Source: Minisyncoccia bacterium (GTDB taxonomy: Bacteria > Patescibacteriota > Minisyncoccia > Phycocordibacterales > UBA918). From it: DNA of 64,000 nucleotides. Each line of letters starts with the position of its first letter. Position 1 is the stretch's first letter. Under the pieces are notes generated by a model, which had not been told where the DNA came from, ran no database searches, and saw only the letters and a list, made by a program, of their open reading frames with translations. The stretch is taken from positions 68,142-132,141 of the forward strand of contig JBGSYZ010000017.1 of assembly GCA_041750655.1 (NCBI GenBank). Direction: 5' to 3'. This document shows positions 854 through 61,074 of this stretch, in pieces. The position numbers and the translations under genes were made by a program.

Positions 854-1215
854 ATCGTTGATTATAGCTCAGTAAACAAAAAAGGTCACTCCTTTAGTTG
901 TACGTAAGCAAGAGCTGTGCACAGTATGGTCATGTACATCTTTTATATGGGTAGGTAATATAAGTTAAATTAAGCCTTATTTTATGTCAGATTTAAACGA
1001 AAAAATTTCCCGAAAACAATTTTTACAAAAAGGTGCGTTGACAATATTTAGTTTTTTATTTGTAAGCTCTGCGATTTGGAATATTGCAAAGCCCGACAAA
1101 TCCAAAAAAGGCTATAGTGAGGGTTCATATGGGGGGTAGTTTTGTTTAACAATTCTGGTCCAATTACGGCACACAATTATTCTCAGGTCTGTGATAGTCT
1201 AGTTTAGATTATAGT

Positions 1216-2010: not shown

Positions 2011-2061
2011 CACAGTATCGTATAATGCTTATTAAGGTTACTAATTTACTTATTTTGTTAC

Positions 2062-2268
2062 ATGGCTCTTCCAACACCAGGCTCAGATAACGGCACATGG
2101 GGCACTATCCTCAACAACTTTTTGCTCGTATCACATAATACAGACGGGACTGTCAAAGATGGTGCTGCTATTAAATCTTCAACAGTTAATCAGGTCGTGA
2201 CTTTGTCGCAAGCAGCGTATGATGCGCTTACTCCTAGTTCTGATACTCTCTACATAATCACCAGCTAA
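2062..2268 (+). CDS. Small hypothetical protein, possible phage structural (tail-fibre-like) N-terminal module
   Basis: 68 aa with no signal peptide. It lies 11 nt upstream of the 1160-aa protein in a different frame. Composition is Gly/Thr/Asn-rich. Confidence 0.3.
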   Translation: MALPTPGSDNGTWGTILNNFLLVSHNTDGTVKDGAAIKSSTVNQVVTLSQAAYDALTPSSDTLYIITS

Positions 2269-2279
2269 GTTGGAACTTT

Positions 2280-5762: not shown

Positions 5763-5767
5763 GTATA

Positions 5768-5800
5768 GAAAAAGCCACTGACAAAGTCCGTGGCTTTTTC
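5768..5800 (+). terminator. Rho-independent terminator after the 1160-aa gene
   Basis: aaagccac-tgacaaagtcc-gtggcttttt: stem plus T-run. Confidence 0.6.
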
Positions 5801-5852
5801 TATTCAAGGTATTATAGGTGTAATTAAAAATAAAAAATCACCTCACCCGTGC

Positions 5853-6392
5853 TTAACGGGTAAGGTGAATATTATGATGAGATTGAGGCCGAGGTTCGAC
5901 AAAGACGAACAACTCTTCATCCTCATCAAGAAGGATTTTTTGAAGTGCTCGCTCGAAACGAGCGAAGCCGCGAGCGCCACCAGCGACGCTCATACATCCT
6001 AGACCACTAGCGGGGCCAGCGTGAATGAGGATGTGTTGGCGTTCGATTGGTCCAGTACCTGTGAGGGAATATTGTCGTTGACACCAAGACTCATAGAGTC
6101 GAAGCGAAAACCCGTTTCTTTTTGGGTAGACAATTTTACCTCGGTAAGGTGTACACGTCCGGTTGGGTGGGCATTCTCCACCTTTGCGATAGCGAATTTT
6201 CTTTTTCCCAAAAACAATCAGTGCTGAGTCACGGGTGACCGCGAACGTAAACCGAGACGCCCGGTCGGTATCGTCTAGCAATTCAGCGAAATACGTTGGA
6301 ACCATCCGCTTTTGACCTCGTTTACCAAGCTTTTCGTACTGAATAGTTTTACCCACAATACGTGCTGTAATTACAATGTATTTCATCGACAC
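5853..6392 (-). CDS. Hypothetical protein with Cys/His cluster (C-x5-C ... H-x3-H), possible small nuclease/zinc-ribbon protein
   Basis: 179-aa ORF. Motifs GGECPPNRTCTPYRG and HILIHAGP. The C-terminal 50 aa are encoded by unusually GC-rich DNA. No confident family assignment. Confidence 0.3.
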   Translation of the reverse strand: MSMKYIVITARIVGKTIQYEKLGKRGQKRMVPTYFAELLDDTDRASRFTFAVTRDSALIVFGKKKIRYRKGGECPPNRTCTPYRGKIVYPKRNGFSLRLYESWCQRQYSLTGTGPIERQHILIHAGPASGLGCMSVAGGARGFARFERALQKILLDEDEELFVFVEPRPQSHHNIHLTR

Positions 6393-8259: not shown

Positions 8260-9567
8260 ATGGCTGCCAAAAAAGCACCTAAAAAAGCAGTAAAAAAAGT
8301 CGCCAAAAAAGCGACCACGAAGGCCACGAAAAAGGTAGTGAAGAAAACTACAAAAAAAACAACGGCCAAGAAAACAACCAAAAAAGTAGCAAAGAAGACT
8401 ACAAAAAAAGCGGTTAAGAAAGTTTCGAAGGCCGCACCTAAAAAAGCTGTTAAAAAGACAGCCAAAAAAGTTACCAAAAAATTAACCAAGTCTCAAAAAG
8501 AACTGCGCGATAAAGCGGCAGTTTTGATGCAGATGGGTCGCGATCGTGGGTATATTACGTATGATGAGATTTTGCGTTCCTTCCCAGAGATTGAAAAGAA
8601 TGTATCTTTCTTAGAGGAAATGTATGAAAATTTCGCTACCGCCGGTATCGATGTTTTTGAAAGCGGCGGGATGCTGGGGGCTGATCCTAGCGTAGAGCTT
8701 CTAGAGCGAAAGAATTCGTATCGCCGTAATGATTCAGGGTACGATTCTATCCAGATGTACTTACGTGAAATCGGGCAATACCCGCTTTTGACCGCTCAGC
8801 AAGAACGAGATTTAGCAAAGCGAATTTTAGATGAAGATGAAGAAGCTCGCAATTTGTTGGCTCGCGCTAACCTGCGTTTGGTGGTGTCTATCGCCAAGAA
8901 GTATGTCGGCCGTTCTCCAGATTTAACCTTACTCGACTTGATTCAAGAAGGAAACCTCGGACTCTTTAAGGCCGTTGATAAATTCGATCACACGAAAGGC
9001 TTTAAGTTTTCTACGTATGCTACCTGGTGGATTCGCCAAGCTATTACCCGAGCATTGGCTGATCAGTCACGAACAATTCGTATTCCAGTGCACATGGTAG
9101 AAACGATGGCTAAATACAAGCAGGTTTCTCGCCGGCTTGCTCAAGATTTTGGTCGCGACCCAATGCCAGAAGAGATTGCGGTAGAAATGGGTGTTGAGGT
9201 AGAGAAGATTTACCAAATTGAGAAAATTTCTCAAGATACTATTTCACTGGAACTTCCAATTGGTAGCGATGACGATGATCGTTCTCGTTTGTCTGATTTT
9301 ATTGCTGACGACAAGATTGTCTCGCCAGACCAAGAAGTGGCCCATAGTATCCTGACTGATCAAATCACTGAAATTCTTGATTCGCTTTCAGAGAAAGAGC
9401 GAAAGATTTTGGAGATGCGCCACGGACTCTTAGATGGTACGTTCCATACTTTGGAAGAAGTAGGGAAGGAGTTTGGTGTGACGCGCGAGCGTATTCGGCA
9501 GATAGAAGCCAAAGCACTCGAAAAGATACGACAACACGAAAAAGCTCGACGTCTAAAATCCTACTAA
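8260..9567 (+). CDS. rpoD: RNA polymerase sigma-70 factor RpoD with about 77-aa N-terminal lysine/alanine-rich (histone H1-like) extension
   Basis: Region 2 ([42 protein letters not shown]) and region 4.2 ([21 protein letters not shown]) are present. The N-terminus is a (K-K-x-x-K-K-A/V/T)n repeat. The dnaG-rpoD order is the conserved arrangement. Confidence 0.9.
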
Positions 9568-15992: not shown

Positions 15993-16016
15993 AAAGTGCC
16001 TTGAGACACTTTTTAT
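15992..16016 (+). terminator. Terminator after uppP
   Basis: aaaagtg-ccttgaga-cacttttt. Confidence 0.55.
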
Positions 16017-16207
16017 CCATTCCAGTCCCCAGACTGGACGGCCGATGTGACGCGCTAGCGGAACCAGGCCGAGGTGGAAAGAACTCAAACTTTAGTTTTC
16101 TCCATACCTTGGCACTTTTCGCCCTGCGCAGCGTTCTTTAGCTAATTTCTGTCGAAGATGAAATTCGGGTTTATAAAGAAAAGGACGTCCAGAAACCCCC
16201 GGGCGCC

Positions 16208-16411
16208 CTATTTTTCGAGAAGCACAGCTCTGAGTGTCGCAATCTTGAGCATAACCCACTCTTTGTTGTTTAAGATTCTCCGGCCTTGTTTTGTTTGATT
16301 GAGGCCCTGCCTAAGAATTTGCCGAAGTTCTCTTAATGTCTGAACGCCAGTGGTCTTCTTTGCGTCAGCAATGAGCTGTTCTCTATTTATTAGCAAAAGT
16401 GGTTTTTTCAC
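16208..16411 (-). CDS. Small basic hypothetical protein (67 aa), possible DNA-binding
   Basis: GTG start preceded by a strong SD (gaaaggagg, 5-nt spacer). Basic composition (RQILRQGLNQTKQGRR). Confidence 0.4.
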   Translation of the reverse strand: MKKPLLLINREQLIADAKKTTGVQTLRELRQILRQGLNQTKQGRRILNNKEWVMLKIATLRAVLLEK

Positions 16412-16454
16412 CGTTTCCTCCTTTCTAGTTATAATTTTACACTAATGTCTATAT

Positions 16455-17030
16455 TTAAAAAGGCAAGGTATGCGTCATTGACGCGTCTTCTTTGATAATC
16501 CAGGCGGATGTATCAAGAGGAATATCTTTTTTGCGAGCACCGTCTTTGAATTTTACATGGCCGTTTTTTAAGGCGTATTCAAATATTTCTTTGGTGACTT
16601 TTACATCCTGTTCACAGTACTTTTTAATTTCATCAATTTTACCTTCCCGCCACCAGCGCACGGCCTGTAGGCCGTCCGCTGATTTCTTGGAACCAAGGGT
16701 GGCCTGAGCCACACTATCGAGGCGTAATCGGCGACCAAGCGAGGTCTTAATATCTTCGAGTAAATCAATGCTTTTAATTTGGGTTAAATCACCAGGGTAA
16801 TATTTATTTAAAAGAGGAATATCAAAATGGTTGCTGTTGTAACCAACGAGCGCATCGGCCGCTTCTATAATTGGCCAAAGTATTTCGAGATTATCGATAG
16901 TAGCCGTCGTATATTTGTCAGTGTGACTATCATAAACAGTTCCGACCGAAATATCTAAAAGGGCCGGGTCGCTTCCACCAACGTCTTGAAAAATATTTTG
17001 AGTTTCTAAGTCAAAGACAACGTAACGCAT
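16455..17030 (-). CDS. DEDDh-family 3'-5' exonuclease (DnaQ/RNase T-like)
   Basis: Exo I VVFDLETQ, Exo II YNSNHFDIPLL and Exo III Y-x3-D (YCEQDV). Confidence 0.7.
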   Translation of the reverse strand: MRYVVFDLETQNIFQDVGGSDPALLDISVGTVYDSHTDKYTTATIDNLEILWPIIEAADALVGYNSNHFDIPLLNKYYPGDLTQIKSIDLLEDIKTSLGRRLRLDSVAQATLGSKKSADGLQAVRWWREGKIDEIKKYCEQDVKVTKEIFEYALKNGHVKFKDGARKKDIPLDTSAWIIKEDASMTHTLPF

Positions 17031-17101
17031 GGGAAAGATTGTAACATATACTTTTTTATAAATATGAAAGGGCTCCGCAATACATTTGCGAAGCCCACGA
17101 T

Positions 17102-17692
17102 TTAAACAGTATGTGCTATCTGGTGTTGATTGAGGAATAGTTCTTCAAAGTGCTCTCCCCAACGCTGCCAGATTGGTAATGTGTGGTAGGCACCAAGCTC
17201 GCCGGGAGCTAAGGCAGAAATCTTCTGTTCGGGACGTAGACCCTCAGCCCAGCATTCGACTGCTAAGGCGGTGATTTCGCCGATATTTAGGCCTTTAGCA
17301 AATCGAATTTGGGCAATACATGACGTGTAAAACGGATCGCGTTCACCAATAAGCTCTTTGATCAACATCTGTCCAAAAGGGGTATCGTTGAGAATACTAA
17401 GTCGCCGTTTTGGGTTGTGTTCACAAAGAAGCTTACGCAACTCCCAATAAGAAACAGACTCAGATTCCGATATCTTCCAACCACCACGGTCACCGTTGCC
17501 CATATAGACAATCAGTGCAGGGGATATAGATTTTTTATCACCTAAAAAATTATCAATTCGCTCCAAAGTCTTTGTTCGACCGAGATGATGGAATTGAACT
17601 TTACAACAGAGGTTGGTCAGTTTTTGGATCAACTCCAGTGCTTTGGTAACTTTTGGCCCATCCACAGTCGTAATAACCAGAACATCAGTCAT
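17102..17692 (-). CDS. Hypothetical protein (196 aa)
   Basis: Complete ORF with no family recognised. See the findings for a tentative caspase-like pattern with substituted catalytic residues. Confidence 0.35.
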   Translation of the reverse strand: MTDVLVITTVDGPKVTKALELIQKLTNLCCKVQFHHLGRTKTLERIDNFLGDKKSISPALIVYMGNGDRGGWKISESESVSYWELRKLLCEHNPKRRLSILNDTPFGQMLIKELIGERDPFYTSCIAQIRFAKGLNIGEITALAVECWAEGLRPEQKISALAPGELGAYHTLPIWQRWGEHFEELFLNQHQIAHTV

Positions 17693-17756
17693 GGTATTTC
17701 TCCTTGTTTACCTAACCTAAGCAGAACAATAACACATATTTAAAGTATGTAAATAT

Positions 17757-19058
17757 TTAAAGCTTTTTAACTAACTCCTCAATATTCCCAAATGTTTCTT
17801 CGCCATCAGTAAGGTTCTTAAGCGAATACTTACCGGTCTTGGCTTCGTTCTCTCCAATGATCAATGCGTAGGTGACCATAGCTTCAGCAGCGGCAGAAAG
17901 TTTCTTGCCAACTTTTCTTGTGCTGACATCGGTTGCAACACTCACGCCAACTTGGCGAATGGCCTGAGCTAGCTTTTGGCCATGCATATTAAACTCTGCA
18001 TCGGTTGGAAGAATCATGACAGTTGGAGAGGTGATGTCAGTTGACATGAGCTCGTGCGTTTCCAAAAAGTCGCGCATAGTGACATCCCCAAACCCAAATC
18101 CAATCCCGGGCACCGCTTCGCCGCCAAAGAGGGAAGTTAGATTGTCATAGCGCCCGCCACCTAAAAGAGAGCGGTTGTTACCCTCGGCTTTGTCTTTAAA
18201 TTCAAAAATAGTGCCGGTGTAGTAATCAAAACCGCGAGCTAAAGAGCGGTCTAGACGAACGTTCTTTATGCCAAGCTCATTGAGTCCAGCTACCACAGCG
18301 TTCTCACCAGCGTCTTCTTGTTCTATCATTTTCTTCACTTCATTTGCTAAATCTTTATGACCAAGTGCTTCTACCATTTCTGCTAAGTATGTACTTTCGT
18401 CAATTTTATCTTTTTTGTCGTTAAGACGAGTTAGTTTTTTAATTGTTTCTTCATTGGTAATACCTAACATCTCATACGCTTTCTTCATGGTTTGGCGGTT
18501 GTTGACCAAAATCTCGAACATGCTTTCATCCGCTCCAAAGTTCATAAAGATTTGGTAGGCCAAAGCAATGACTTCCACATCCACCGAAATATCAGTTGAG
18601 CCAAAAATATCGCAATTGAGTTGCCAGTGTTCGCGCAGGCGGCCGCGTTGGGCTCGTTCGTAACGGAAGAGATTGGGGATGGAATACCAACGCACTGGGA
18701 AGGCTAGTTCTTTTCTTTTAGCGGCAATCATGCGGGCGACGGTTGGGGTCATCTCGGGTCGCAAAGTCACTTCGCGATCACCACGGTCGATGAAAGTATA
18801 GGTTTGTTCGTTGATCATCTCTTCGTTTTCCGCCCCCTTGGCTTTGTATAACGCTGATGGTTCCAACACTGAAGCATTGTATCGTTCAAAGCCAAAACTC
18901 TCAGCCGTGTAGGCCCAGGTATCAAAAATATATTGCTGAATAGCCATGTCTTCTGGGTAAAAATCCCGGACACCCTTATAGGGGTCGGTCGATAGATGTT
19001 TATTACTATTCTCTTTGCTCATGGGGCTGATTGTACGTAAATGTTGTCTTTTTAACAA
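17757..19058 (-). CDS. hisS: Histidyl-tRNA synthetase
   Basis: Class II motifs: FRYERAQRGRLREHWQLNCDIFG (motif 2) and GGGRYDNL (motif 3). An anticodon-binding domain lies at the C-terminus. Confidence 0.9.
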   Translation of the reverse strand: MLKRQHLRTISPMSKENSNKHLSTDPYKGVRDFYPEDMAIQQYIFDTWAYTAESFGFERYNASVLEPSALYKAKGAENEEMINEQTYTFIDRGDREVTLRPEMTPTVARMIAAKRKELAFPVRWYSIPNLFRYERAQRGRLREHWQLNCDIFGSTDISVDVEVIALAYQIFMNFGADESMFEILVNNRQTMKKAYEMLGITNEETIKKLTRLNDKKDKIDESTYLAEMVEALGHKDLANEVKKMIEQEDAGENAVVAGLNELGIKNVRLDRSLARGFDYYTGTIFEFKDKAEGNNRSLLGGGRYDNLTSLFGGEAVPGIGFGFGDVTMRDFLETHELMSTDITSPTVMILPTDAEFNMHGQKLAQAIRQVGVSVATDVSTRKVGKKLSAAAEAMVTYALIIGENEAKTGKYSLKNLTDGEETFGNIEELVKKL

Positions 19059-19062
19059 GGTT

Positions 19063-19644
19063 TTATAATCCAGCTTGGTCGTGACGATACTGAGTGACTT
19101 TTTGCCGTTCGTCAGCTTGGTGGATTATAAGAGATTTTAGACCACGTGGGTCAGGCATATTCTTGGCTTTAAATTCTTCATTGCTGCCGCCGGCAGTTTG
19201 TGCCTCAATAAATCCATAATTGAGTAAAGTCGGAATAATACCGCTGATTTCGATATTCATATCTTGGAGTCGTTCGAGACGAAATGAGGATAGGTGACGA
19301 CGAAAGAAACCGCGTTGGTCGATAGCAACAATCCGACGATCGGTAATAACCCACAGATCAAGATAGTAGTCAGTAATGTGGTTAGTAAAATGCATCCACA
19401 TTAAAAGTATCCAAGCGAGATAAAAAAACCAGATAGTGCCCGTAAATTCTGAAAATGAATTCATAGTGACAAATTGGTTGACGGGGAGTTCAGCAATAAG
19501 TTTGGACAGAATAAAATAACCGATGAGTGGAAGTAGCGTTAGTAGCAAGTCTCCAATAATAAACATACACATCACGAACCAGTGCTTACGAACAATTTTG
19601 ATTATTTTTTCATCAGCTTCAAGCTTAATCTGTTCAACTAACAT
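19063..19644 (-). CDS. Membrane protein with bacterial PH domain (bPH_2, YdbS/YdbT-like)
   Basis: Two N-terminal TMs then DYYLDLWVITDRRIVAIDQRGFF, typical of bPH_2. Confidence 0.55.
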   Translation of the reverse strand: MLVEQIKLEADEKIIKIVRKHWFVMCMFIIGDLLLTLLPLIGYFILSKLIAELPVNQFVTMNSFSEFTGTIWFFYLAWILLMWMHFTNHITDYYLDLWVITDRRIVAIDQRGFFRRHLSSFRLERLQDMNIEISGIIPTLLNYGFIEAQTAGGSNEEFKAKNMPDPRGLKSLIIHQADERQKVTQYRHDQAGL

Positions 19645-19647
19645 ACT

Positions 19648-19878
19648 TTAAAAAATAATTATACTGCCCATAATGAGAAGAATAACTACCCCAATTCCAA
19701 TATGGAGCATGGTGCCAAGAAAGGCTTGCGACTTGCTGTGACCATAAGTCAGCCAGTGATAGGCTACGATGGCTGAATGAATAGCAAAGACTAGAACTAA
19801 GAATAAAAAAACTAGTGTCAAGAATTGGTCAAGTGAGACGCTAATAAAGGTATCGGGCGCAAGTGGGTTAGTGGGCAT
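19648..19878 (-). CDS. Small membrane protein (76 aa)
   Basis: Two hydrophobic helices. Tightly packed between prmC and the bPH gene. Confidence 0.35.
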   Translation of the reverse strand: MPTNPLAPDTFISVSLDQFLTLVFLFLVLVFAIHSAIVAYHWLTYGHSKSQAFLGTMLHIGIGVVILLIMGSIIIF

Positions 19879-19886
19879 ATTCAGGA

Positions 19887-20783
19887 TTATTGTACCATCA
19901 GTACACTGTAACGAATGGTTTGGTACTGGTCTTGATAACTGGTTGGTGCAAAACCAAACTCATGAGCCAAGAGAGAAATTTCACTTGTCTGTTCTGGTTC
20001 GTGTTCAATCCAGAGTTGTCCGCCTGGTTTTAAGAAATGTTCCGCTTGAGAAATAATTTTGGAGATAATCTCCATACCATTATTACCACCATAAAGTGCG
20101 AGCGGTGGTTCAAAATCTTTCACTGATTTTTCTGCTCGGTCTATTTTTGGATCTATGTAAGGTGGGTTTGTTAAAATGAAGTCAAATTGGCCAGAGATGT
20201 TTTCAAACAGGTTTGATTGAAAGACTTGGTAGCGGGTACAAGAGATTTCGTTTGCTTCCAAATTTTTACCAATTGTGGGGAGGTGAGCCTTGTCGATTTC
20301 TCCAAAGGTGACGTGGGCTTCAGGTACGGCTTTAGCTACGGCTACACCAATAGCTCCTGAACCAGCACAGAGGTCAAGAAGCTTTACTGGCGCAGCAGGC
20401 TCATCGTCTTGCCGCTGCCTGCCAAGCGACTCCGCTTCAAGACGATGAGCCTGCTGCTTAATAGCGCTAATCGCTTTCTCTACCCAATACTCAGTTTCTG
20501 TTCTGGGAATAAGCGTAAATTTCTTTACGCTTATTCCGGTCCTGTCTCCAGACAAGAATTTCCGATGTCGTTTAGACGAGGAAATAGGTGGAATTAAATC
20601 TGTCTCACCACTGAGATATATCTTACAGTTAAGAAAGGGAACATAACCAATCACATACCCGAGTGGCTCGCCGGTATGCAGGCGCTCGCAATCGGTGAAA
20701 AAACCTTCAGTTTTTTCACCTTTATATTTTTCCGCAAGCAGCCACTGTTCATCTTTTGTCATAGATGATTTGGATTTTTGCAC
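19887..20783 (-). CDS. prmC: Release-factor glutamine N5-methyltransferase PrmC/HemK (with in-frame insertion in N-domain)
   Basis: SAM motif LDLCAGSGAIG and catalytic FDFILTNPPYI. The N-terminal domain carries an extra stretch of about 35-40 aa encoded by palindromic DNA. Confidence 0.8.
   Translation of the reverse strand: MQKSKSSMTKDEQWLLAEKYKGEKTEGFFTDCERLHTGEPLGYVIGYVPFLNCKIYLSGETDLIPPISSSKRHRKFLSGDRTGISVKKFTLIPRTETEYWVEKAISAIKQQAHRLEAESLGRQRQDDEPAAPVKLLDLCAGSGAIGVAVAKAVPEAHVTFGEIDKAHLPTIGKNLEANEISCTRYQVFQSNLFENISGQFDFILTNPPYIDPKIDRAEKSVKDFEPPLALYGGNNGMEIISKIISQAEHFLKPGGQLWIEHEPEQTSEISLLAHEFGFAPTSYQDQYQTIRYSVLMVQ
20506..20537. repeat. Perfect hairpin (14-bp arms, 4-nt loop) embedded in the prmC coding sequence
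   Basis: GGAATAAGCGTAAA-tttc-TTTACGCTTATTCC. It encodes ISVKKFTLIP on the minus strand. A second inverted repeat lies at about 20402..20447 (CATCGTCTTG...CAAGACGATG). Confidence 0.8.
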
Positions 20784-21124
20784 GAACCGCGGACAATGAT
20801 TTCCATTTCCTCAATTTTGAAGTCTTGCGGTTCAAGTAATTTTAAAATTTTTTTATCTGGGGCTTTAAAATGAATTACTTTTTCACAATTAACACAAACC
20901 GCATGATGGTGTGGCTGGTTTTGGTATTCGTACTGAGCTTCCTCAGTACCGATATGGATTTGTTTAATTAATTTCTCTTGCAAAAACAAATCAAGATTTC
21001 GGTATATGGTCACCAAATCTATAGTGGGCAAGTGTTTATGAATATCAGCAGCCGATAGGGAGCCTTTATGTTTCCTTAAGATATCTAATATTTGTTTGCG
21101 TTTTATGGTTAGTCTCATATGCAA
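20759..21124 (-). CDS. Fur-family metalloregulator (probably Zur)
   Basis: 121 aa with an N-terminal winged helix, an HHH...C-x2-C metal site (HHHAVCVNCEK) and a C-terminal C...C. Divergent from a ZIP zinc transporter. Overlaps the prmC start by 25 nt. Confidence 0.75.
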   Translation of the reverse strand: MHMRLTIKRKQILDILRKHKGSLSAADIHKHLPTIDLVTIYRNLDLFLQEKLIKQIHIGTEEAQYEYQNQPHHHAVCVNCEKVIHFKAPDKKILKLLEPQDFKIEEMEIIVRGSCKNPNHL

Positions 21125-21160
21125 GTGATTTGCATCTTACCAACTTTTTGTTACACTGGC

Positions 21161-21181
21161 AATTGCAAATTAGTTGCAATT
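21161..21181. promoter_or_regulatory. Palindromic Fur/Zur-box-like operator in the divergent promoter region
   Basis: AATTGCAA-attag-TTGCAATT (8-bp perfect inverted arms) plus adjacent GCAATTGC. AT-rich and located between the Fur-family gene and the ZIP transporter. Confidence 0.4.
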
Positions 21182-21205
21182 AATGTTTACCTACCAATTT
21201 AGTTT

Positions 21206-22000
21206 ATGATGTTTGAAGCACTAATAGCTGGAGTACTGGTTGCCCTTACCTCACTTACCGGAGTTTTTTTCTTTAAAAACAACAAGAAGCTTCTCGGTGC
21301 ACAACGATACGTCGTGCCGATAGCAGTAGGGGTTTTCTTGAGTTTGGTTCTTTATGAACTTATTCCAGAAACCTTAGAACAGTCTCCACAATGGGGCGGT
21401 ATAGCCGTGGCTTTTGGTTTTATAACTTTTTATATATTAGCCAACTATCTTCATAAAAAATATCACCACTTAGAAGCAGATGACTGTGATCGCAAGGGAG
21501 CGGCGGCTCTGCTTCTTATTGGAGATGGTATTCACAATATCTCTGACGGAGTAGTGCTCGGTGGGGCGTTTTTAATCGATCCAACGGTGGGCTGGGCGAC
21601 AGCGGCGGCGCTCGCGCTTCATGAGATTCCCCAAGAGATAGTGGAGTTCGGGGTTTTGATACGCGCTGGCTACACAAGAAGCGCCGCCGCTCTCTACAAC
21701 TTAATATCAGCCAGCAGCATTATTCTAGGGTTAATCATGATTGTGGTTATATCAGAATATGCTAATGGATATATTTGGATAATTACTGGTATTGCGGCGG
21801 GCAATTTACTTTTCCTGGCCGCTAGTGACTTGCTGCCTCGTATTCACGGTAACCTAAAAAATTACGGTAGCATTTGGCACTCTACTTTTTCAATAATCAT
21901 TGGTTTTGTAATAATGACTACAGTACTTATTTGGACCCATGAACACTTTCATCTCCATGAAGGTCAACACGATGAAATTCACAATGAAACTCATCTTTAA
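21206..22000 (+). CDS. ZIP-family zinc transporter (ZupT-like)
   Basis: HNISDGV and HEIPQEIVEFGVL motifs, 8 TMs and a His-rich C-terminus (HEHFHLHEGQHDEIHNETHL). Confidence 0.85.
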   Translation: MMFEALIAGVLVALTSLTGVFFFKNNKKLLGAQRYVVPIAVGVFLSLVLYELIPETLEQSPQWGGIAVAFGFITFYILANYLHKKYHHLEADDCDRKGAAALLLIGDGIHNISDGVVLGGAFLIDPTVGWATAAALALHEIPQEIVEFGVLIRAGYTRSAAALYNLISASSIILGLIMIVVISEYANGYIWIITGIAAGNLLFLAASDLLPRIHGNLKNYGSIWHSTFSIIIGFVIMTTVLIWTHEHFHLHEGQHDEIHNETHL

Positions 22001-33902: not shown

Positions 33903-34433
33903 TTATTGTGAGTCTTCTATATCGAGCTGTTCAGCAATAATGTGTTTTAGGCCTTGGCGGGAAACAATGCCAACTGGACGACCTTCCTCATCAATAACTG
34001 GAATTCGGAGTCGTTTATTGGCGATAGCGGTAACTGCAACAGCCATAAGACTTTCTTTTTCAGTTACGGTAGTTAGTTCTGATGACATAAAGTCGCTAAC
34101 TGATTTGTTTTGTGTTTCAGTTACAGCTGCTTTAAACATGTCTTCCGTAGCAAAGTGAGCGGCAGTACTGTCACCGTCTAGATACTCTGGGACAACAGCA
34201 TCAAGCAAGTCTGTAACGCTGGTAACACCTATTAATTTCCCTTCATCGTTAGTAATAAGTAAGACGTTTGTTTTTTTTGTAACCATCAAAGAAACAGCTT
34301 CCTTGAAAGAAGCGTCAGCAGAAATGATAACAGGCTCTTTAATTATATCTTTTAGTTCCATAAGACGAGGAGCATCATACTCCTCTAGAAATTGTTGTAA
34401 AGGGAAGATAGTCACAGTTGATGTTAAAATCAA
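33903..34433 (-). CDS. CBS-pair domain protein
   Basis: Two CBS modules. Paralogue of 10767..11237, with the same arrangement next to a membrane transporter. Confidence 0.7.
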   Translation of the reverse strand: MILTSTVTIFPLQQFLEEYDAPRLMELKDIIKEPVIISADASFKEAVSLMVTKKTNVLLITNDEGKLIGVTSVTDLLDAVVPEYLDGDSTAAHFATEDMFKAAVTETQNKSVSDFMSSELTTVTEKESLMAVAVTAIANKRLRIPVIDEEGRPVGIVSRQGLKHIIAEQLDIEDSQ

Positions 34434-34574
34434 TTTATGAAGAAAAGATGTACGTGGTAAGGGGCTGAAACAGTCTGGGAGATTGTTTCAGGAGGTTGCC
34501 TTGGATTTTGTAAAAACACCGACAACCAGTACAGCTCCTGTAAGGAGGGCCAGTTCATTGGTACACTACGAATA

Positions 34575-34646
34575 TGAAAACTCGTTGCGCATGGTGTACA
34601 GAAGAACAAATCTATATTGACTACCATGATAAAGAATGGGGTTGAA
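34575..34646 (+). pseudogene. Truncated duplicate of the tag 5' end (23 codons then stop)
   Basis: MKTRCAWCTEEQIYIDYHDKEWG* vs the Tag start MKIRCQWCGDDPLYISYHDTEWG. The upstream leader is also duplicated, each copy with a hairpin (ctgaaaca...tgtttcag / ttgaaaatgtc...gacattttcaa). Confidence 0.5.
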
Positions 34647-34751
34647 AATGTCTGGAGACATTTTCAAAAGGTTTACTAATATTTTTGCTAGAAAATATTG
34701 AAAACCTGAACAGTTTCTGTAAGAAATACCAGGGACTGGTACACTAGGTAT

Positions 34752-35312
34752 ATGAAAATTCGCTGCCAGTGGTGTGGGGATGATCCTCTCTATATTTCTT
34801 ATCACGATACTGAGTGGGGTGTACCAGTGTATGACGACATCAGGCTATTTGAATTTATTACTCTTGAAGGGGCGCAGGCGGGTTTGTCGTGGTTGACCAT
34901 TTTAAAAAAGAGGGAAGGATATCGCAAGGCATTTAAAGGGTTTGATCCCAAAAAAGTGGCTAAGATGACACAAAAGGATGTAGAAAGGTTGATGAAGGAT
35001 GAAAGTATTATCCGTAATCGACTGAAAATAAACTCGACGATAACTAACGCGCAAGCTTTTTTGAAGATTCAAAAAGAATTCGGTAGTTTTTCGGCCTACA
35101 TGTGGGCTTGGGTAGAAGGTAAACCGATTCAAAATAAATTTAAGAATATTAGTGATGTACCGGCGGTGACCGAGCTCGCCACCGCTATGTCCAAGGATTT
35201 AAAAAAGCGGGGTTTCAAATTTCTCGGCCCAACTATCTGGTATGCTCATATGCAAGCCTGTGGGGTGGTGAATGACCACACGGTGGATTGTTTTAGGTAT
35301 AATGAACTTTAA
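34752..35312 (+). CDS. tag: DNA-3-methyladenine glycosylase I
   Basis: Cys4 zinc snap motif (C-x2-C...H...C). The conserved YHDTEWG and GAQAGLSWLTIL confirm the Tag family. Confidence 0.85.
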   Translation: MKIRCQWCGDDPLYISYHDTEWGVPVYDDIRLFEFITLEGAQAGLSWLTILKKREGYRKAFKGFDPKKVAKMTQKDVERLMKDESIIRNRLKINSTITNAQAFLKIQKEFGSFSAYMWAWVEGKPIQNKFKNISDVPAVTELATAMSKDLKKRGFKFLGPTIWYAHMQACGVVNDHTVDCFRYNEL

Positions 35313-47728: not shown

Positions 47729-48409
47729 TTAATAGGTGTCTTCGATTGGTACCTCACAGGTTAGACCACACGCTTCGGGCGGCGGTGTGCCGCGCTCGGG
47801 GCAGGTACCGGTATAGATACACGCTTCGTCGGTCACGTCATTCTCGTATTCTGAAATGTTTGGCGAATTTTTGTCTCCGTAATACAGAAGCACTCGATCC
47901 GCTTCTTGATTAATGTAATCAGCAATAGGTGAGAATTTTTCACCATTTACATACAAGGTTAATTCTTTAGTTTCATTGGCACAGTATTCTTCACCAGTGT
48001 CTAGTGTTAAACAATCATTATTGATTTTAAATCCAATCGAACGCAGTAGGTCACCGAGAGTTAAACCCTCCGCATGGCGATGAATGATGTTACCTTGATT
48101 ATCGTGAAGATGAAGGTTGGCCAGTTTTACGTCATTAGCTGTAGACTGGTATTTGTCTTGAGTTAAATCAACCTTTTTTCCATCCACCATTATTAAGAAA
48201 TCTGAGTGTACGTGAACTTCTCCTATGTGTTCATGGTCGTCGTGGTCGTGCGTTTCTGGGGTGGTAACCATAAAAAATATGCGCATAGCAATTGCGCCCA
48301 CAATAACACCTAAAATCAAAGCTTTCTTATTCATAGTTTTGGCAGTATACCACCAAATAATCAAATTTATGTATTGAATCTCTTGAAAAAATCTGTACAA
48401 TGTCCCCAC
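47729..48409 (-). CDS. Secreted/anchored hypothetical protein with His/Asp-rich segment and C-terminal Cys pairs
   Basis: Signal anchor, then TPETHDHDDHEHIGEVHVH and a C-terminal CIYTGTCPERG...CGLTCE. Confidence 0.45.
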   Translation of the reverse strand: MGTLYRFFQEIQYINLIIWWYTAKTMNKKALILGVIVGAIAMRIFFMVTTPETHDHDDHEHIGEVHVHSDFLIMVDGKKVDLTQDKYQSTANDVKLANLHLHDNQGNIIHRHAEGLTLGDLLRSIGFKINNDCLTLDTGEEYCANETKELTLYVNGEKFSPIADYINQEADRVLLYYGDKNSPNISEYENDVTDEACIYTGTCPERGTPPPEACGLTCEVPIEDTY

Positions 48410-48454
48410 GTCTATGACTATTCATAGACACACAAAAAAATACATTCCGGCGTA

Positions 48455-48472
48455 GCTCAGCGGAGTAAAAGT
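48455..48472 (+). repeat. Truncated 5' copy #1 of tRNA-Asn (acceptor 5' strand + D-stem) with conserved upstream aaatacat
   Basis: tccggcgtagctcagcgg, identical to the first 18 nt of the intact tRNA at 48817. Confidence 0.8.
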
Positions 48473-48633
48473 AAACAGTTTTACTTTTAATCTGGTCACG
48501 AGCGATAGTCGAGTGATTGGCCGATGTTTGGTCGCAAATAAGGTCAAAAGTGGGAGAGTGTACTCTACCGCTAAATGTGTTGATATATTTAACATAAACT
48601 GCGAATAGAGGTCACATTACAATAAAATACATT

Positions 48634-48656
48634 CCGGCGTAGCTCAGCGGTAGAGT
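48634..48656 (+). repeat. Truncated 5' copy #2 of tRNA-Asn (23 nt)
   Basis: tccggcgtagctcagcggtagag. The three 5' copies are spaced about 180 bp apart. Confidence 0.8.
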
Positions 48657-48816
48657 GAGAAAGTCTTAAGACACTTTCGCAAGACTTTGACTACTATTTT
48701 TACGAAAAGAAAAATAGTGACAAAGTGGACAGCTTCTGTAAGAAGGTTGACGTAGGCAACTGCGTAAACTACAGATTAGTCCGAAATTCTATTGATGACT
48801 ATTTTTGGAAATACAT

Positions 48817-48888
48817 TCCGGCGTAGCTCAGCGGTAGAGCAGTTGACTGTTAATCAATTGGTCGTAGGTTCGAATCCTACCGCCGGAG
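48817..48888 (+). tRNA. tRNA-Asn (anticodon GTT)
   Basis: Cloverleaf: acceptor TCCGGCG/CGCCGGA, D-arm GCTC-AGCGGTA-GAGC, anticodon arm GTTGA-CTGTTAA-TCAAT and T-arm GTAGG-TTCGAAT-CCTAC, with discriminator G. CCA is not encoded. Confidence 0.85.
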
Positions 48889-48894
48889 CATCCA

Positions 48895-48923
48895 ACAAAA
48901 AAGACCCGAAAGGGTCTTTTTTG
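48895..48923 (+). terminator. Terminator after tRNA-Asn
   Basis: aaaaaagaccc-gaaa-gggtcttttttg. Confidence 0.75.
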
Positions 48924-49040
48924 TTGTCGATGCTCCGAGCGAGAAAGGTGTGGGACACCTTTCGGGTAGGATTCGAAGACCTTGCTTAGTATTTTTGTAA
49001 AAAATACTGACAAGGTGTACCGTTCATGTAATGAAAGAAA

Positions 49041-49057
49041 CTCCTACCGCCGGAGCA
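49041..49057 (+). repeat. tRNA-Asn 3'-end fragment a (T-stem 3' strand + acceptor 3' strand), att-like
   Basis: ctcctaccgccggagca. Preceded by a hairpin module (48941..49022) homologous to 48657..48733. Confidence 0.7.
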
Positions 49058-49150
49058 CTGAAAATCCTTTTTTTTGGTATTTTTCTAATTTTTGACTTTC
49101 TAGGCACTCTTAGGTACGTTACTAAGAGATGATTCACTTGGGAGAAAACA

Positions 49151-49312
49151 ATGAAAGAGGACACTCCTGCGCAGGACGAAGTTAACTTCCTGAATGCTGA
49201 ATACAAAACGTACATCGAAAGGGAGAAATCGACCTGGCTCTCTGAAAATCGAATCGATTCGAGAGATGTGTACGAAGTAATGAGTCCTGAAGACCAGAAA
49301 AAAGTGCACTGA
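49151..49312 (+). CDS. Cassette small ORF (53 aa)
   Basis: SD gggagaaaacaATG. Followed in the +2 overlap by a 41-aa ORF (49316..49441). Confidence 0.3.
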   Translation: MKEDTPAQDEVNFLNAEYKTYIEREKSTWLSENRIDSRDVYEVMSPEDQKKVH

Positions 49313-49621
49313 CGCATGGAGCAAGCAAACCACCATATATCAAGTCTTGCGGAGGCGTGGTGGAAAGAACGTGGATTTGGAATCGTCTGGCCTGACGATA
49401 ATTCAGAACCAATGAAGGTTTATAAACTAAAAGCAGTCTAATACAAAATGGTGACTGCTGACTAAAGCTTCCTTTCGCAAGATTGGCGGCTTTTCTTTTT
49501 ACTCAACAAAAAAAGTTCGAACATCATCCCATAAGCGGAGCCAGTAAAAATAGCCCACAAACAGTGGTTATTTTTATGCCCCTTCGTGGACATTAGAACC
49601 TTCTCTGACCTCAAGCCAAGG

Positions 49622-49840
49622 TTACTTCTTTTTATGATGTTTGTATTCAACGCTCCACACCAGATTTGGTTTTACTTCCGCTATAGCGGGCAATAGATGG
49701 TTGAGAAGCTGTTCAGCTGTCATCCGAAACTTTTTACCTTTTGCGGAAATCTTGACCCATCCCTCCTCATCACGAAAGTAAGTTTCGGTGAAGTTTTTAG
49801 TCCCCATCGAGATTATGTAGCTGTCATTTGTTAGTTTCAT
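49622..49840 (-). CDS. Cassette small ORF (72 aa)
   Basis: Complete ORF with no recognised family (MKLTNDSYIISMGTKNFTETYFRDEEGWVKISAKGKKFRMTAEQLL). Confidence 0.3.
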   Translation of the reverse strand: MKLTNDSYIISMGTKNFTETYFRDEEGWVKISAKGKKFRMTAEQLLNHLLPAIAEVKPNLVWSVEYKHHKKK

Positions 49841-49919
49841 ATAGGAATATCATATCAAAAGTTAGGTATAAAAATGTTGGGATTATTTTGAAAATAGGTT
49901 CTAACGTCGTTCACTAGGT

Positions 49920-50084
49920 GGAGCATCAGTTTCCAAAACCCCAACACGATTGAGTGTTGGGGTTTTGTGATACTGACTCTGAGGACGGATTCGAAAAGGT
50001 TGACTGATATTTTACGACTGGAAGGAGTAAAAATATCGACAACCTGTACTGAAGCAGTAGGCTTCGAATCCTACCGCCGGAGCA
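49920..50084 (+). repeat. About 165-bp direct repeat copy 1 ending in tRNA-Asn 3' fragment b
   Basis: About 90% identical to 50588..50750. Contains a terminator-like hairpin aaaaccccaacac-gattga-gtgttggggtttt, a GGATTCGAA T-loop-like box, the AT-rich hairpin gatattttac...gtaaaaatatc, and finally gtaggcttcgaatcctaccgccggagca. Confidence 0.8.
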
Positions 50085-50157
50085 CTACTTGACATAGTAA
50101 TATTACTGTGTCAATATCTTGCTTGGACAATCCCGTCCTTTTAGAAGGAGGTGCTGT

Positions 50158-50433
50158 ATGGCAGAAATTGAAGAGTATGTCCTCGACATAGAGGATTTTA
50201 TCAGAACGAGGAAACCAGATGGAACAATCGTTCTGACACACCCCACCTTTTCAGGAACGGTCGAATTCGGCCCGAATGAATCACCAATGTGGCTGTTTCC
50301 GAGATTAAAGGAATTCTCGGAAAACAATGGTGTTCTTCTAAGCCCCAAGCTGGCACGACTGGCTAAGGGAGTGGAAGACGACCTAAGTGGGAACGCTTGG
50401 GACTACGACGAGTCTGAGGACGACCTCTACTAG
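50158..50433 (+). CDS. Cassette small acidic protein (91 aa)
   Basis: Strong SD gaaggaggtgctgtATG (MAEIEEYVLD...) and a rho-independent terminator at 50464..50493 (aaccccgccc-gaatga-ggcggggtttttt). Confidence 0.5.
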   Translation: MAEIEEYVLDIEDFIRTRKPDGTIVLTHPTFSGTVEFGPNESPMWLFPRLKEFSENNGVLLSPKLARLAKGVEDDLSGNAWDYDESEDDLY

Positions 50434-50587
50434 GCACAGGAGCTACCAATGTCTATAAGACCATAACCCCGCCCGAATGAGGCGGGGTTTTTTGTTATGC
50501 AAGATCCAGAGAAGAGAAAGATGATATGAAGTGTAATTCTTTCTCTATACTCTGCCAGTTCAATGTTAGAAACTCGTCCAGCACGCG

Positions 50588-50750
50588 GAGCATCAGTTTC
50601 CAAAACCCCAACACGTCTAGCGTTGGGGTTTTGTGATACTGACTCTGTGGACGGATTCGAAAAGGTTGACTGATATTTTACGACTGGAAGGAGTAAAAAT
50701 ATCGACAACCTGTACTGAAGCTGTATAGCTTCGAATCCTACCGCCGGAGC
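50588..50750 (+). repeat. About 165-bp direct repeat copy 2 ending in tRNA-Asn 3' fragment c
   Basis: Same architecture as 49920..50084. It ends in gtatagcttcgaatcctaccgccggagc. Confidence 0.8.
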
Positions 50751-50812
50751 TAGTAGAAGTACATTCAAAAAAGTGAATGTGTTTCTGTTATACTGAAATT
50801 AGTTAAAAGTAA

Positions 50813-51529
50813 GTGTATTCATTTTTTATGTTTTCGATAAAAAATCTAGCACGCATTACTGGAGCAACCTATCTCCTGATGATTCCGTTTGGTGTCTTGG
50901 GGATTTTGTATGTTCCAAGTGCTATCTTTGTACATAATGATATGGTTGCGACTGTTGGTAATATTATTGCTAATAAACAAATGTTCCATTTCAGCATTTT
51001 TGCTTCGCTTGTCGTGCAACTGATACAAATTGTTTTAGTATTACTTCTGTATAAATTACTCAGCCACGCCAGCAAAACAGCCGGAATACTTATGATTGCG
51101 TTCATCATCCCAGCTGTTTCTATCGCTATGCTTAATGAAGTTAATCTGCTTGCAATCAGTAGTTTAGTTAGTGGTGCGACTTATACTGCTAGCTTTACTG
51201 CAGAGCAAATTCAAGGACTCGTTGGATTGTTGTTTGAAATGCATCAAGCAGGTGTCTTTGTGGCACAAATCTTCTGGGGCATCTGGTTATTCCCTATGGG
51301 GTATCTTGTGTATCATTCAGGATACATACCTCGTTTTATTGGTGTGTTACTGATGATTGGTTGTTTCGGGTACTTGGCCGACTCATTATTTTTTGTATTG
51401 AATATTGACATCAGGTTTACTATCAGCGAATTCACATTCTTGGGAGAAGTATTGTTACCCCTATGGTTAATCTTTAAGGCAAGTGACATTGCTCTGTATC
51501 ATCCGAATGGCAAATTACAGACCGTGTAA
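50813..51529 (+). CDS. Polytopic membrane protein (DUF4386-like?)
   Basis: 238 aa with 6 TMs. The family guess is tentative. Confidence 0.4.
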   Translation: MYSFFMFSIKNLARITGATYLLMIPFGVLGILYVPSAIFVHNDMVATVGNIIANKQMFHFSIFASLVVQLIQIVLVLLLYKLLSHASKTAGILMIAFIIPAVSIAMLNEVNLLAISSLVSGATYTASFTAEQIQGLVGLLFEMHQAGVFVAQIFWGIWLFPMGYLVYHSGYIPRFIGVLLMIGCFGYLADSLFFVLNIDIRFTISEFTFLGEVLLPLWLIFKASDIALYHPNGKLQTV

Positions 51530-59317: not shown

Positions 59318-59694
59318 TGTTGTGATTAGTTATGTTAATAGGGAGCTAATTTAAATCTACACTATATATGACGCTAGGTATGAACATTCCTTACTAAAAA
59401 CCAACCATTTTTTAAAAAACACCAAAAATAAAGTGTTAATGGAGATGATTGACACTTCTCAATAATCGTGCTATTTTTGCGGGAAGCTTTTTAAACTCGT
59501 GTGGAATTAAAAGGCATGTGCTCGTAGCCTTCGTGAGACCTTTTGGTACTTTCTGGATGCTAAGCATTAAGAAGTACCAACAGGTGTACAGCTCCTCTCT
59601 GGAGCCCTCGGTCGCGCATATTGCCATGACTGATTTCTGAAATTATTACCTACACAAATTTGAGACGTATTGTCTCTCACTTAAAAAATAAATA

Positions 59695-61074
59695 ATGGAT
59701 TCAACAAATACCCGACAACGTCGGACAGGTTCGGCACGTGGCCGCTCATTTTCTAGTAGTAAACCAAAAACAGCAGACAGCGCTCGTTCTGGTGGTAATT
59801 TTCGCGGTGCCCGCAGCGGTGGCTCAAGTGCTGGTGCCCGCAGCGGTGGCAGCAGCTTTCGCGGCGCCCGTAGTAGCGGTCCATCACGTGGTGGACGTAG
59901 TTTTGGAGGAGGCGACCGTAATCGTGGTGGACGCGGTGGTGGACGAGCAATGCCAACTTTTGACCCAACCCAATTTATAAACAAAAACCCGGTAAAGGTG
60001 GAACAGGTTGCCTACGTGGCCACTCACAAGTTTAGTGATTTTGATATCGACAAACGCTTGGTAGATACCATTGCCAGCATGGGTATTACTTCACCGTCAC
60101 CGATTCAAGACCAAATCATTCCTCATATTTTAGAAGGTAAGGACGTGGTTGGTTTGGCTGAAACAGGAACCGGTAAGACAGCAGCTTTCTTGGTACCACT
60201 GATTGAACTCACGAAAAAACACCACGGGACTCAGACTCTTATTTTGACTCCAACCCGTGAGTTGGCACTTCAAGTAGAAGCTGAGTTGCGTAAATTAGCA
60301 AAGAACTTTAATTTCTTCTCAACTGTGTGTGTGGGCGGAACCAATATTCGTCCGCAGATTCGCGGAGTCCGACGTAAAAACCATTTCATTATTGGTACAC
60401 CGGGTCGGGTTATGGACTTGATTGACCGTGGTGATTTACAAACAGACAAGTTCACGACCGTAGTACTCGATGAAGCCGACCGAATGCTCGACATGGGTTT
60501 TATTCATGATATGCGCAAAATTCTCGAGGATATTCGAGAAGATCGTCATACATTATTCTTTTCTGCCACTATGGACGAGAAGACTAAGGGTCTGGTAAAA
60601 GACTTTATGAAAGACCCGGTGATGGTGTCAGTAAAGAAGCGAGATGTGACCGATAGTATTGTGCAAGATGTAGTGCCGTTCACGCATGATAAAAAATTTG
60701 AAAAACTAGTTGAACTTCTTAAGAAAGATGAGTTTGCGAGAGTACTTGTTTTTGGTTCAATGAAGCATAGTGTAGAAAAGCTCGGAAAAGAACTCAACCA
60801 AAACGGCATTTCTGCTGATTCAATTCATGGCAACAAGAGTCATCCCCAACGACAGCGCTCATTGGCTAAGTTCAAGAATGGCCAGATAAAAGTGTTGGTA
60901 GCGACTGACGTAGCGGCTCGTGGTATCCACGTTGATAATGTGTCGCATGTTATCAACTACGATCTACCAAACACTTTTGAGGATTACGTACACCGTATTG
61001 GTCGTACTGGTCGTGGTGATAAGTTTGGAAAAGCGTTGACGTTTGTCCAAGATAAACCGCAACATCGACGATAA
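59695..61074 (+). CDS. DEAD-box ATP-dependent RNA helicase with N-terminal Arg/Gly/Ser-rich disordered region
   Basis: Q-motif, Walker A AETGTGKT, DEAD (VLDEADRMLDMGF), SAT and HRIGRTGR motifs. The N-terminal about 95 aa are RGG/RSGG repeats. Confidence 0.85.
   Translation: MDSTNTRQRRTGSARGRSFSSSKPKTADSARSGGNFRGARSGGSSAGARSGGSSFRGARSSGPSRGGRSFGGGDRNRGGRGGGRAMPTFDPTQFINKNPVKVEQVAYVATHKFSDFDIDKRLVDTIASMGITSPSPIQDQIIPHILEGKDVVGLAETGTGKTAAFLVPLIELTKKHHGTQTLILTPTRELALQVEAELRKLAKNFNFFSTVCVGGTNIRPQIRGVRRKNHFIIGTPGRVMDLIDRGDLQTDKFTTVVLDEADRMLDMGFIHDMRKILEDIREDRHTLFFSATMDEKTKGLVKDFMKDPVMVSVKKRDVTDSIVQDVVPFTHDKKFEKLVELLKKDEFARVLVFGSMKHSVEKLGKELNQNGISADSIHGNKSHPQRQRSLAKFKNGQIKVLVATDVAARGIHVDNVSHVINYDLPNTFEDYVHRIGRTGRGDKFGKALTFVQDKPQHRR

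Follow-up and report, generated by a model that had tools for sequence, protein, structure and literature searches.

Small units without a recombinase gene stacked at a tRNA-Asn gene of a Minisyncoccia bacterium: a possible site of cassette exchange

This analysis concerns a stack of small DNA units at a tRNA-Asn gene in a 64 kb stretch (the window) of contig JBGSYZ010000017.1 from a Minisyncoccia bacterium. tRNA-Asn(GTT) is the only tRNA in the window (plus strand, 48817-48888 or 48889; ARAGORN; Rfam, 75.6 bits). The gene is intact, and CA comes next, so its end reads GGAGCA. Flanking genes are chromosomal and encode ATP synthase, phosphoketolase, acetate kinase, a DUF4386 protein, YkuD, and peptidase C39. 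An initial annotation had described the locus as a pile-up of tRNA fragments lacking an integrase. This description held, as partial copies of both tRNA ends occur far above chance and, across the 64 kb, open reading frames (ORFs) of at least 150 aa gave no match to an integrase, transposase, or resolvase domain. TCCGGCGTAGCTCAGCGG, the 5' end of the tRNA, is repeated exactly upstream at 48446 and 48633 (extents 18 and 23 nt), and the 8 nt AAATACAT precede the intact gene and both fragments. Including these 8 nt, the two 5' fragments span 48438-48463 (tRNA positions 1-18) and 48625-48655 (positions 1-23) on the plus strand; there are three 5'-end matches against 0.02 expected by chance. Logan contig L001, from a different run, is identical to the window at the first 5' fragment, and identity runs to the second, where its assembly breaks. 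CCTACCGCCGGAGC, the 3' end of the tRNA, has exact copies at 49043, 50070, and 50737 besides the tRNA itself (chance expectation 0.11), and the full 3' fragments are 49041-49057 (17 nt), 50062-50084 (23 nt), and 50729-50750 (22 nt). The two 5' and three 3' copies had been counted correctly before, with the 5' copies placed at 48455 and 48634. An intact tRNA at one end and direct repeats of its 3' part beyond it, the arrangement of a classical tRNA-targeting element, are found here with three such fragments.

Downstream of the tRNA gene the stack consists of six units, each closing in GGAGC(A), with which the tRNA gene, read together with the CA after it, also ends. Three are modules of about 160 bp without an ORF (A, B, and C), and three are ORF cassettes (X1a, X1b, and X2); GGAGC is common to all unit ends. 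Unit boundaries were drawn from sequence reading and from comparison with related contigs (numbered with the prefix L). The region had at first been divided into three segments, each closed by a tRNA fragment. This division was replaced, since a boundary at 49542, inside 49058-50084, was detected with an nhmmer profile from seven cassette ends, and the ORF cassettes end in a conserved tRNA-3'-like site of 28-65 nt, GTTCGAA...GCGGAGCA, instead of a tRNA fragment.

The modules lie on the plus strand and have the same order: a terminator hairpin, an inverted copy of the T-arm or acceptor, a conserved hairpin element (R1), and a true tRNA 3' fragment. Module A (48889-49057), delimited by repeat searches and an R1 covariance model, has the terminator hairpin at 48893-48926, the inverted tRNA 3' end at 48930-48980 with hairpin H1 inside it, R1 at 48976-49039, and then the 17-nt tRNA 3' fragment with GGAGCA. 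As single-stranded DNA, the tRNA 3' end and module A are predicted to form a single branched hairpin of high stability (-63 kcal/mol, z = -12.5). Module B (49926-50084) has its terminator hairpin at 49934-49967, the inverted T-loop copy at 49987-49995, R1 at 49994-50068, and the 23-nt fragment; it has homologues in L016/L020 and L022. Module C (50593-50751) is about 95% identical to module B and ends in the 22-nt fragment and GGAGCT, after which the chromosomal flank begins. An inverted copy of the tRNA T-arm, GGATTCGAA, is found in each downstream module (48969, 49987, and 50653; six matches against 0.63 expected). The repeat of about 165 bp reported earlier as the tail of two ORF segments is real (49898-50084 and 50565-50750, about 160-187 bp; 97% identity over 107 nt and 82% over 51 nt), but it is a separate structured module. 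Two further ideas about the modules were discarded. That every inverted piece mirrors its module's own direct fragment is true for most modules and fails for L022 and for the tRNA-Val module of L033, and a split or permuted tRNA assembled from a 5' fragment, hairpin H3, T-arm, and acceptor yields no valid cloverleaf.

The three cassettes are also read on the plus strand, and the ORFs of 53, 41, 72, and 91 aa listed in the initial annotation all exist. Cassette X1a (49058-49542) carries the 53-aa ORF (49151-49312) and the 41-aa ORF (49316-49441) and ends in GTTCGAACATCATCCCATAAGCGGAGCC; the cassette-end profile matches this end with E = 0.01, and L013 and L018 have the identical end variant. 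In cassette X1b (49543-49925) the minus strand encodes the 72-aa ORF (49622-49840); the cassette end at 49925, a variant that the profile also finds, is homologous to two cassette ends in L009. Cassette X2 (50085-50592) has a palindrome with a TTGACA box (50089-50114), a Shine-Dalgarno sequence and the 91-aa ORF (50158-50433), a terminator (50465-50489), and an end site at 50548-50592. X2 thus has a palindrome at its left end and no hairpin at its right end; miniature elements derived from IS200/IS605 (palindrome-associated transposable elements, PATE) have subterminal hairpins at both ends and a Y1 transposase in the genome. None of the four small ORFs has a Pfam or PADLOC match. The AlphaFold model of the 91-aa protein has a pLDDT (predicted local distance difference test) of 67.5, and it gave no significant fold match in PDB. 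For the 72-aa ORF, which has no Pfam domain, the family comprises 681 small proteins; the 120 matches listed are 74-96% identical and come from Kaiserbacteria, WWE3, Berkelbacteria, and Falkowbacteria, which represent several phyla of the Candidate Phyla Radiation (CPR). The gene of the 72-aa protein is 82% identical in DNA to that of an unrelated CPR lineage, over the coding region only.

Two more units lie upstream of the tRNA gene on the plus strand. The body of U1 (48464-48624; sequence reading and repeat search) includes a hairpin (48467-48490) and, at 48563-48572, the tRNA D-arm in inverted form, CTCTACCGCT. The body of U2 (48656-48808) includes hairpin H1 (48657-48678) and an R1 two-helix element (48681-48748), which matches the covariance model with 78.1 bits. 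U2 also has promoter-like boxes, TTGACG-N17-TACAGA, at 48747-48775; these were found by eye, and the promoter scan gave no report of a box.

The cassette end site occurs in two variants, type 2 (GGTTCGAAACTCGTCCAGCACGCGGAGCA), which closes X2, and type 1 (AAATAGGTTCTAACGTC...GGAGCA), which closes X1b. Judged by its sequence, the site appears to resemble the tRNA T-loop at its start and the acceptor end of tRNA-Asn at its finish. A metagenome scan found the type-2 site in nine contigs that have only the last 38-93 nt in common, and at least six unrelated cargos precede it. Most ORF cassettes open with a TTGACA box 2-6 nt past GGAGCA.

Evidence that units move comes from X2. Homologues of its 91-aa protein are found in a handful of metagenomic contigs, and the cassette can be aligned over its full 508 bp in L009 (86% DNA identity), L010 (83%), and L007 (81%). 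The unit recurs in four metagenomic contexts besides the window; homology breaks at GGAGCA on each side where the break is visible, and the surroundings differ in all five contexts. X2 lies between modules B and C in the window, beside a cassette encoding a DnaJ-like protein and a DUF202 gene in L009, beside another type-2-ended unit and a 253-aa ORF in L010, and beside a module with the same layout and a different sequence in L007. In L008 the neighbor of the X2-type unit is a 100-aa cassette directly after tRNA-Asn. TruB proteins of the window and L009 are 44% identical, whereas the X2 cassette proteins are 91% identical and no further DNA can be aligned; this contrast points to horizontal transfer of the X2 cassette between distant hosts. 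The earlier proposal of miniature cassettes mobilized in trans is therefore supported as far as the 91-aa unit is concerned, with its exact boundaries in four other contexts and its transfer across a TruB divide of 44%; the enzyme is the conjectural part. Two of these contigs have other features. L009 encodes an OLD-family nuclease (AAA and Toprim domains) beside a UvrD-like helicase at 721-4232, a pair with a Gabija-like look that lies upstream of a run of small ORFs including two GGAGCA-bounded cassettes. L007 has a 76-nt repeat, 74% identical, at 6238-6313 and 7605-7680 before two module-like regions, and the ORFs of 53 and 59 aa called in these regions probably lie within non-coding structured modules.

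The same layout recurs at other tRNA genes. L018/L021 represent a different lineage, whose tRNA-Asn has a different acceptor stem. There, two 5' pseudo-fragments are followed by the tRNA, a module, a type-2-ended cassette, a second module closely similar to module A, and a second cassette, and the direct and inverted tRNA pieces match the tRNA of their own host. Downstream, the window and L021 keep YkuD and peptidase C39 genes in synteny; the locus is therefore orthologous in the two, with different cassettes in it. At tRNA-Val(CAC) of L033 (1856-2160, minus strand), one 26-nt 5' fragment lies upstream, and the downstream module ends in a perfect T-arm and acceptor strand. In their acceptor parts the two outer fragments are complementary (GGACGAT/ATCGTCC) and depart from the sequence of the intact gene (GGACGGT/ACCGTCC). 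The duplicated 5' halves, which the initial annotation had called atypical for tRNA-targeting integrases, thus recur at tRNA-Asn in another lineage and at tRNA-Val, and control tRNAs in these contigs have no such fragments. L008 has two cassettes after tRNA-Asn, each beginning past GGAGCA. At 5439-6125 the anticodon loop of this tRNA-Asn is split by a group I intron of about 610 bp (Rfam RF00028, 73.8 bits) with an HNH-like ORF, and ARAGORN misses the gene. Group I introns in tRNA-Asn of Patescibacteria have been reported (a 2026 paper, PMC13011429), and L008 fits this report. The window modules do not match RF00028, and an origin as group I intron remnants was rejected.

R1 is the part of a module between the inverted and direct tRNA pieces, and it is not specific to tRNA. 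It is also found upstream of tag and other genes. A blastn search located two tandem copies far from any tRNA, at 34462-34751 on the plus strand (R1 at 34490-34550 and 34666-34729). Between them lies a 22-codon 5' fragment of tag (3-methyladenine glycosylase I), and intact tag follows at 34752-35312; the order of 5' gene fragment, element, and gene is that seen upstream of tRNA-Asn, here at a protein gene. A DEAD-box helicase gene (59695-61074) is likewise preceded by an R1 copy, weak and divergent, at 59535-59608 (24 bits, E about 0.001). All R1 copies are upstream of a gene and on the same strand.

Alignment of eight R1 copies gives two helices joined by GTAC, with the H3 loop reading CUGUAAG. 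Pairing is 96%, against 41-59% with slid partners; nine pairs are changed on both sides, and one T-G pair is invariant. A covariance model from these eight copies brought the total to twelve, including independent copies in L022 and L033 and the weak copy before the helicase gene. Over the twelve, pairing is 95% and 12 pairs are changed on both sides, in an alignment that was fitted to the model and favors structure. In 8 of the 12 copies one position has a T-G (U-G) pair, which suggests that one strand folds, as RNA or single-stranded DNA. In Rfam 15 only the tRNA passes the gathering threshold, and permissive scans of 48350-50850 and 34300-34900 stayed at chance level. The element probably acts at the RNA level, which would not conflict with the exchange of units discussed below, and R1 ranks as a strong candidate for a structured nucleic-acid motif not described before. 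Correia elements and pneumococcal BOX elements are comparable structured intergenic repeats. R1 is likewise a dispersed structured intergenic repeat of about 70-100 nt upstream of genes; in contrast to them, no terminal inverted repeats or target duplications of the type seen in miniature inverted-repeat transposable elements (MITEs) were found, and R1 is often coupled to fragments of the adjacent gene.

Recombinase genes are found in relatives, on larger islands. No tyrosine recombinase adjoins the arrays in the window or in L018/L021. An island of 10.8 kb in L033 is bordered by an intact tRNA-Ala(TGC) on one side and by a tRNA-Ala 3' fragment on the other, and it contains a serine recombinase, defense genes, and a tyrosine recombinase adjoining a DUF488 gene. 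Its 160 nt before the fragment have the layout of a module (end remnant, terminator, inverted copy, hairpins, and direct fragment). The closest relative, L022/L028 (JGI 3300025018; AtpD at least 90% identical), has no tRNA-Asn after its acetate kinase neighbor. What stands there is a B-type module in inverted orientation, which includes a 3' fragment of tRNA-Asn; a DUF488 gene and a tyrosine recombinase follow at a distance of about 2 kb, and then come defense genes. The region 16000-21404 of this relative, with small ORFs, DUF488, the tyrosine recombinase, HTH_17, an SNF2/PLD protein, and an MmeI-like methyltransferase, looks like a defense island. Modules without an ORF look, in these relatives, like the attachment-site arm of larger islands with a tyrosine recombinase, and because of this resemblance some of them may be island leftovers.

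A DUF488 gene with a tyrosine recombinase of about 300 aa immediately after it is kept in three lineages (L028, L032, and L033/L034); small ORFs flank the pair on one side, and genes for restriction or abortive infection, which vary, flank it on the other. This recombinase family (P0016) has 931 matches in CPR, about 60% identical or more among the matches listed, and a tblastn search found no homologue in the window. The family is a candidate for the trans-acting enzyme. A phage or satellite origin was rejected; viral contigs with the 3' half of tRNA-Asn, likely as attP, have a high GC content and are unrelated, and blastn against phages and plasmids matched only the tRNA.

Several points are shown by the data: where units begin and end, the conservation of the end site, the transfer of one cassette between hosts, a layout repeated in other lineages, and a window without a recombinase. 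On these grounds we lean towards the view that small units accrete and exchange at a tRNA-Asn hotspot by site-specific recombination, with the enzyme acting in trans. The 3' end of tRNA-Asn, with GGAGCA as its core, would be the attachment site, units would pile up head to tail, and the recombinase would be encoded elsewhere in the genome. A circular unit, consisting of end site, GGAGCA, and promoter, would recombine with the GGAGCA that closes the tRNA gene or any unit already in place; the tRNA would therefore stay intact while the stack grows or is reshuffled. The crossover presumably falls within GGAGCA, and the identity of the enzyme is likewise a matter of conjecture. On the 5' side, a mirrored version of the process could have produced the units, each arrival contributing a promoter of its own (TTGACG-N17-TACAGA in U2) and the first 18-23 nt of the tRNA. 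A more specific proposal, which we put forward tentatively, is that the locus belongs to an undescribed cassette-exchange system of CPR. Such a system would have self-expressed cassettes smaller than 1 kb, a site of about 60 nt mimicking the tRNA-Asn 3' end, and an unlinked recombinase that inserts cassettes serially where the tRNA gene ends, and the modules without an ORF would re-create the site and insulate the tRNA.

Several observations weigh against exchange by site-specific recombination. No recombinase is tied to GGAGCA, and no circular or empty-site form was seen. The end site has no conserved hairpin (none is common to 13 copies) and no obvious inverted half-sites; the 28-nt form has no half-site symmetry on reading, and the sites are directly oriented. 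Fragments of 17, 22, and 23 nt on the 3' side and 18 and 23 nt on the 5' side seem at odds with a single fixed crossover. R1 is also found upstream of ordinary genes, and its function may be unrelated to recombination. L022 has no tRNA-Asn at this place, so presence or absence of units among strains at the same locus cannot be scored. IMG/VR viral contigs contained neither the end site nor R1; R1-like pattern matches there were at chance, and the best covariance-model score was 18 bits. The 72-aa gene was rejected as a second case of mobility, being found in L047-type genomes outside any GGAGCA cassette. Because fragment lengths vary, and because the tag locus has a similar arrangement, there is room for explanations by decay and by transformation.

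Tandem accretion of integrative elements at tRNA genes occurs in streptococci, among integrative and conjugative elements (ICEs) and cis-mobilizable elements (CIMEs). A comparable history, in which integrase-bearing integrations of the tycheposon or CIME type eroded here, losing their integrases and most of their cargo, and were shuffled by homologous recombination between repeats of 60-160 bp without any movement of single small units, is the best of the alternatives, and we regard it as rather doubtful. It agrees with the islands of relatives, which hold a recombinase and are bounded by a tRNA and by a module with a 3' fragment, and the repeated modules and end sites are long enough for homologous exchange. 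Tycheposons of Prochlorococcus show the same tandem elements separated by partial tRNAs, with an intact tRNA at one end, degenerate remnants without an integrase, and a hotspot of variable cargo in a small genome (bioRxiv 10.1101/2020.12.28.424599). However, a near-identical end site on at least six unrelated cargos in different genomes looks like a site conserved for its function rather than a relic of decay. The cassettes are also neatly built, each with a promoter, an ORF, a terminator, and an end site, and the boundaries of X2 are exact where its contexts have no other DNA in common. Compared with tycheposon or CIME accretion, the present units measure 0.16-0.5 kb, a conserved site other than tRNA closes half of them, hallmark mobility genes are lacking, fragments pile up on the 5' side too, and modules without an ORF combine an inverted tRNA copy with a structured element. 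The tycheposon hallmarks, a deep-branching tyrosine recombinase and a replication module, are absent from the units of the window, and it is the larger islands of relatives that have a tyrosine recombinase. Classical tRNA-targeting integrative elements carry their integrase, unlike these units of 0.16-0.5 kb.

Natural transformation with homology-facilitated illegitimate recombination, in which the tRNA is the homologous anchor for DNA taken up from related cells and the other end joins by microhomology, would leave variable partial duplications on both sides. The varying fragment lengths, the fragments on both flanks of the tRNA, and the fragment-element-gene order repeated at tag are all in its favor, as are the outer tRNA-Val fragments of L033, which covary and look like halves of an older gene copy. 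Nonetheless we consider it improbable, since it leaves unexplained the conserved end site, the exact GGAGCA boundaries, and the recurrence of the module architecture at three different tRNAs. A still slighter chance attaches to the modules and fragments being transcribed structured elements, such as tRNA-like processing signals or 5' leaders, repeated by selection and not mobile: the pairing, double-sided changes, and T-G pair of R1, which point to the plus strand only, its position upstream of genes on the same strand, and the way inverted and direct tRNA pieces track the tRNA of each host all fit, but horizontal transfer of a cassette and an end site with no fold are left unexplained, Rfam gives no match, and an RNA role for R1 is compatible with a DNA role at unit ends and would complement exchange more than rival it.

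Exchange by site-specific recombination can also be set beside known cassette systems. As in integrons, small single-gene cassettes lie in one orientation, a recombination-type site is found at the 3' end, and the recombinase is outside the cassette. The integron-like stack of the initial annotation stands in so far as the same cassette occurs in different arrays and hosts, as the 91-aa cassette does in five contexts. It differs in that no intI gene lies beside the array, the anchor is a tRNA end instead of attI, and TTGACA boxes and terminators are part of the cassettes themselves. The end site shows sequence conservation without an attC-type hairpin; only the separate modules without an ORF are rich in hairpins. 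The pdif (Xer) modules of Acinetobacter plasmids and the integrative mobile elements exploiting Xer (IMEX) are small modules without a recombinase that a tyrosine recombinase of the host is believed to mobilize in trans. The present units are likewise small and recombinase-less, and relatives have, close to a module, a tyrosine recombinase that is widely conserved in CPR. Compared with pdif, there is no 28-bp dif-like site with inverted XerC and XerD half-sites, the orientation is direct, and the anchor is a tRNA. No description of such arrays in Saccharibacteria or Patescibacteria was found in the literature.

Saccharibacteria and other CPR have genomes of about 1 Mb with few recognized mobile elements, and gain and loss of single genes is poorly understood in them. 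If cassettes of 0.16-0.5 kb are moved in trans between hosts whose housekeeping proteins are less than 50% identical, they would constitute a compact route of gene flow in CPR. Functionally this would be an integron without its platform, and the exchange of single genes between deeply separated lineages with ultra-small genomes would have an explanation. The defined DNA site GTTCGAA...GCGGAGCA would then serve as a handle for seeking further cassettes and the enzyme.

Among species genomes, the closest phosphoketolases are those of Candidatus Saccharibacteria metagenome-assembled genomes (MAGs), at 70-72% identity, and the analysis took the window for part of a Saccharibacteria-like CPR genome. 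The search of species genomes for synteny gave no match for the 201-aa neighbor, and phosphoketolase matched two Saccharibacteria MAGs that do not have the tRNA locus. In L032, a long GC-rich and hairpin-rich stretch directly upstream of tRNA-Arg(TCT) (8290-8650, minus strand) looks like a structured RNA gene.

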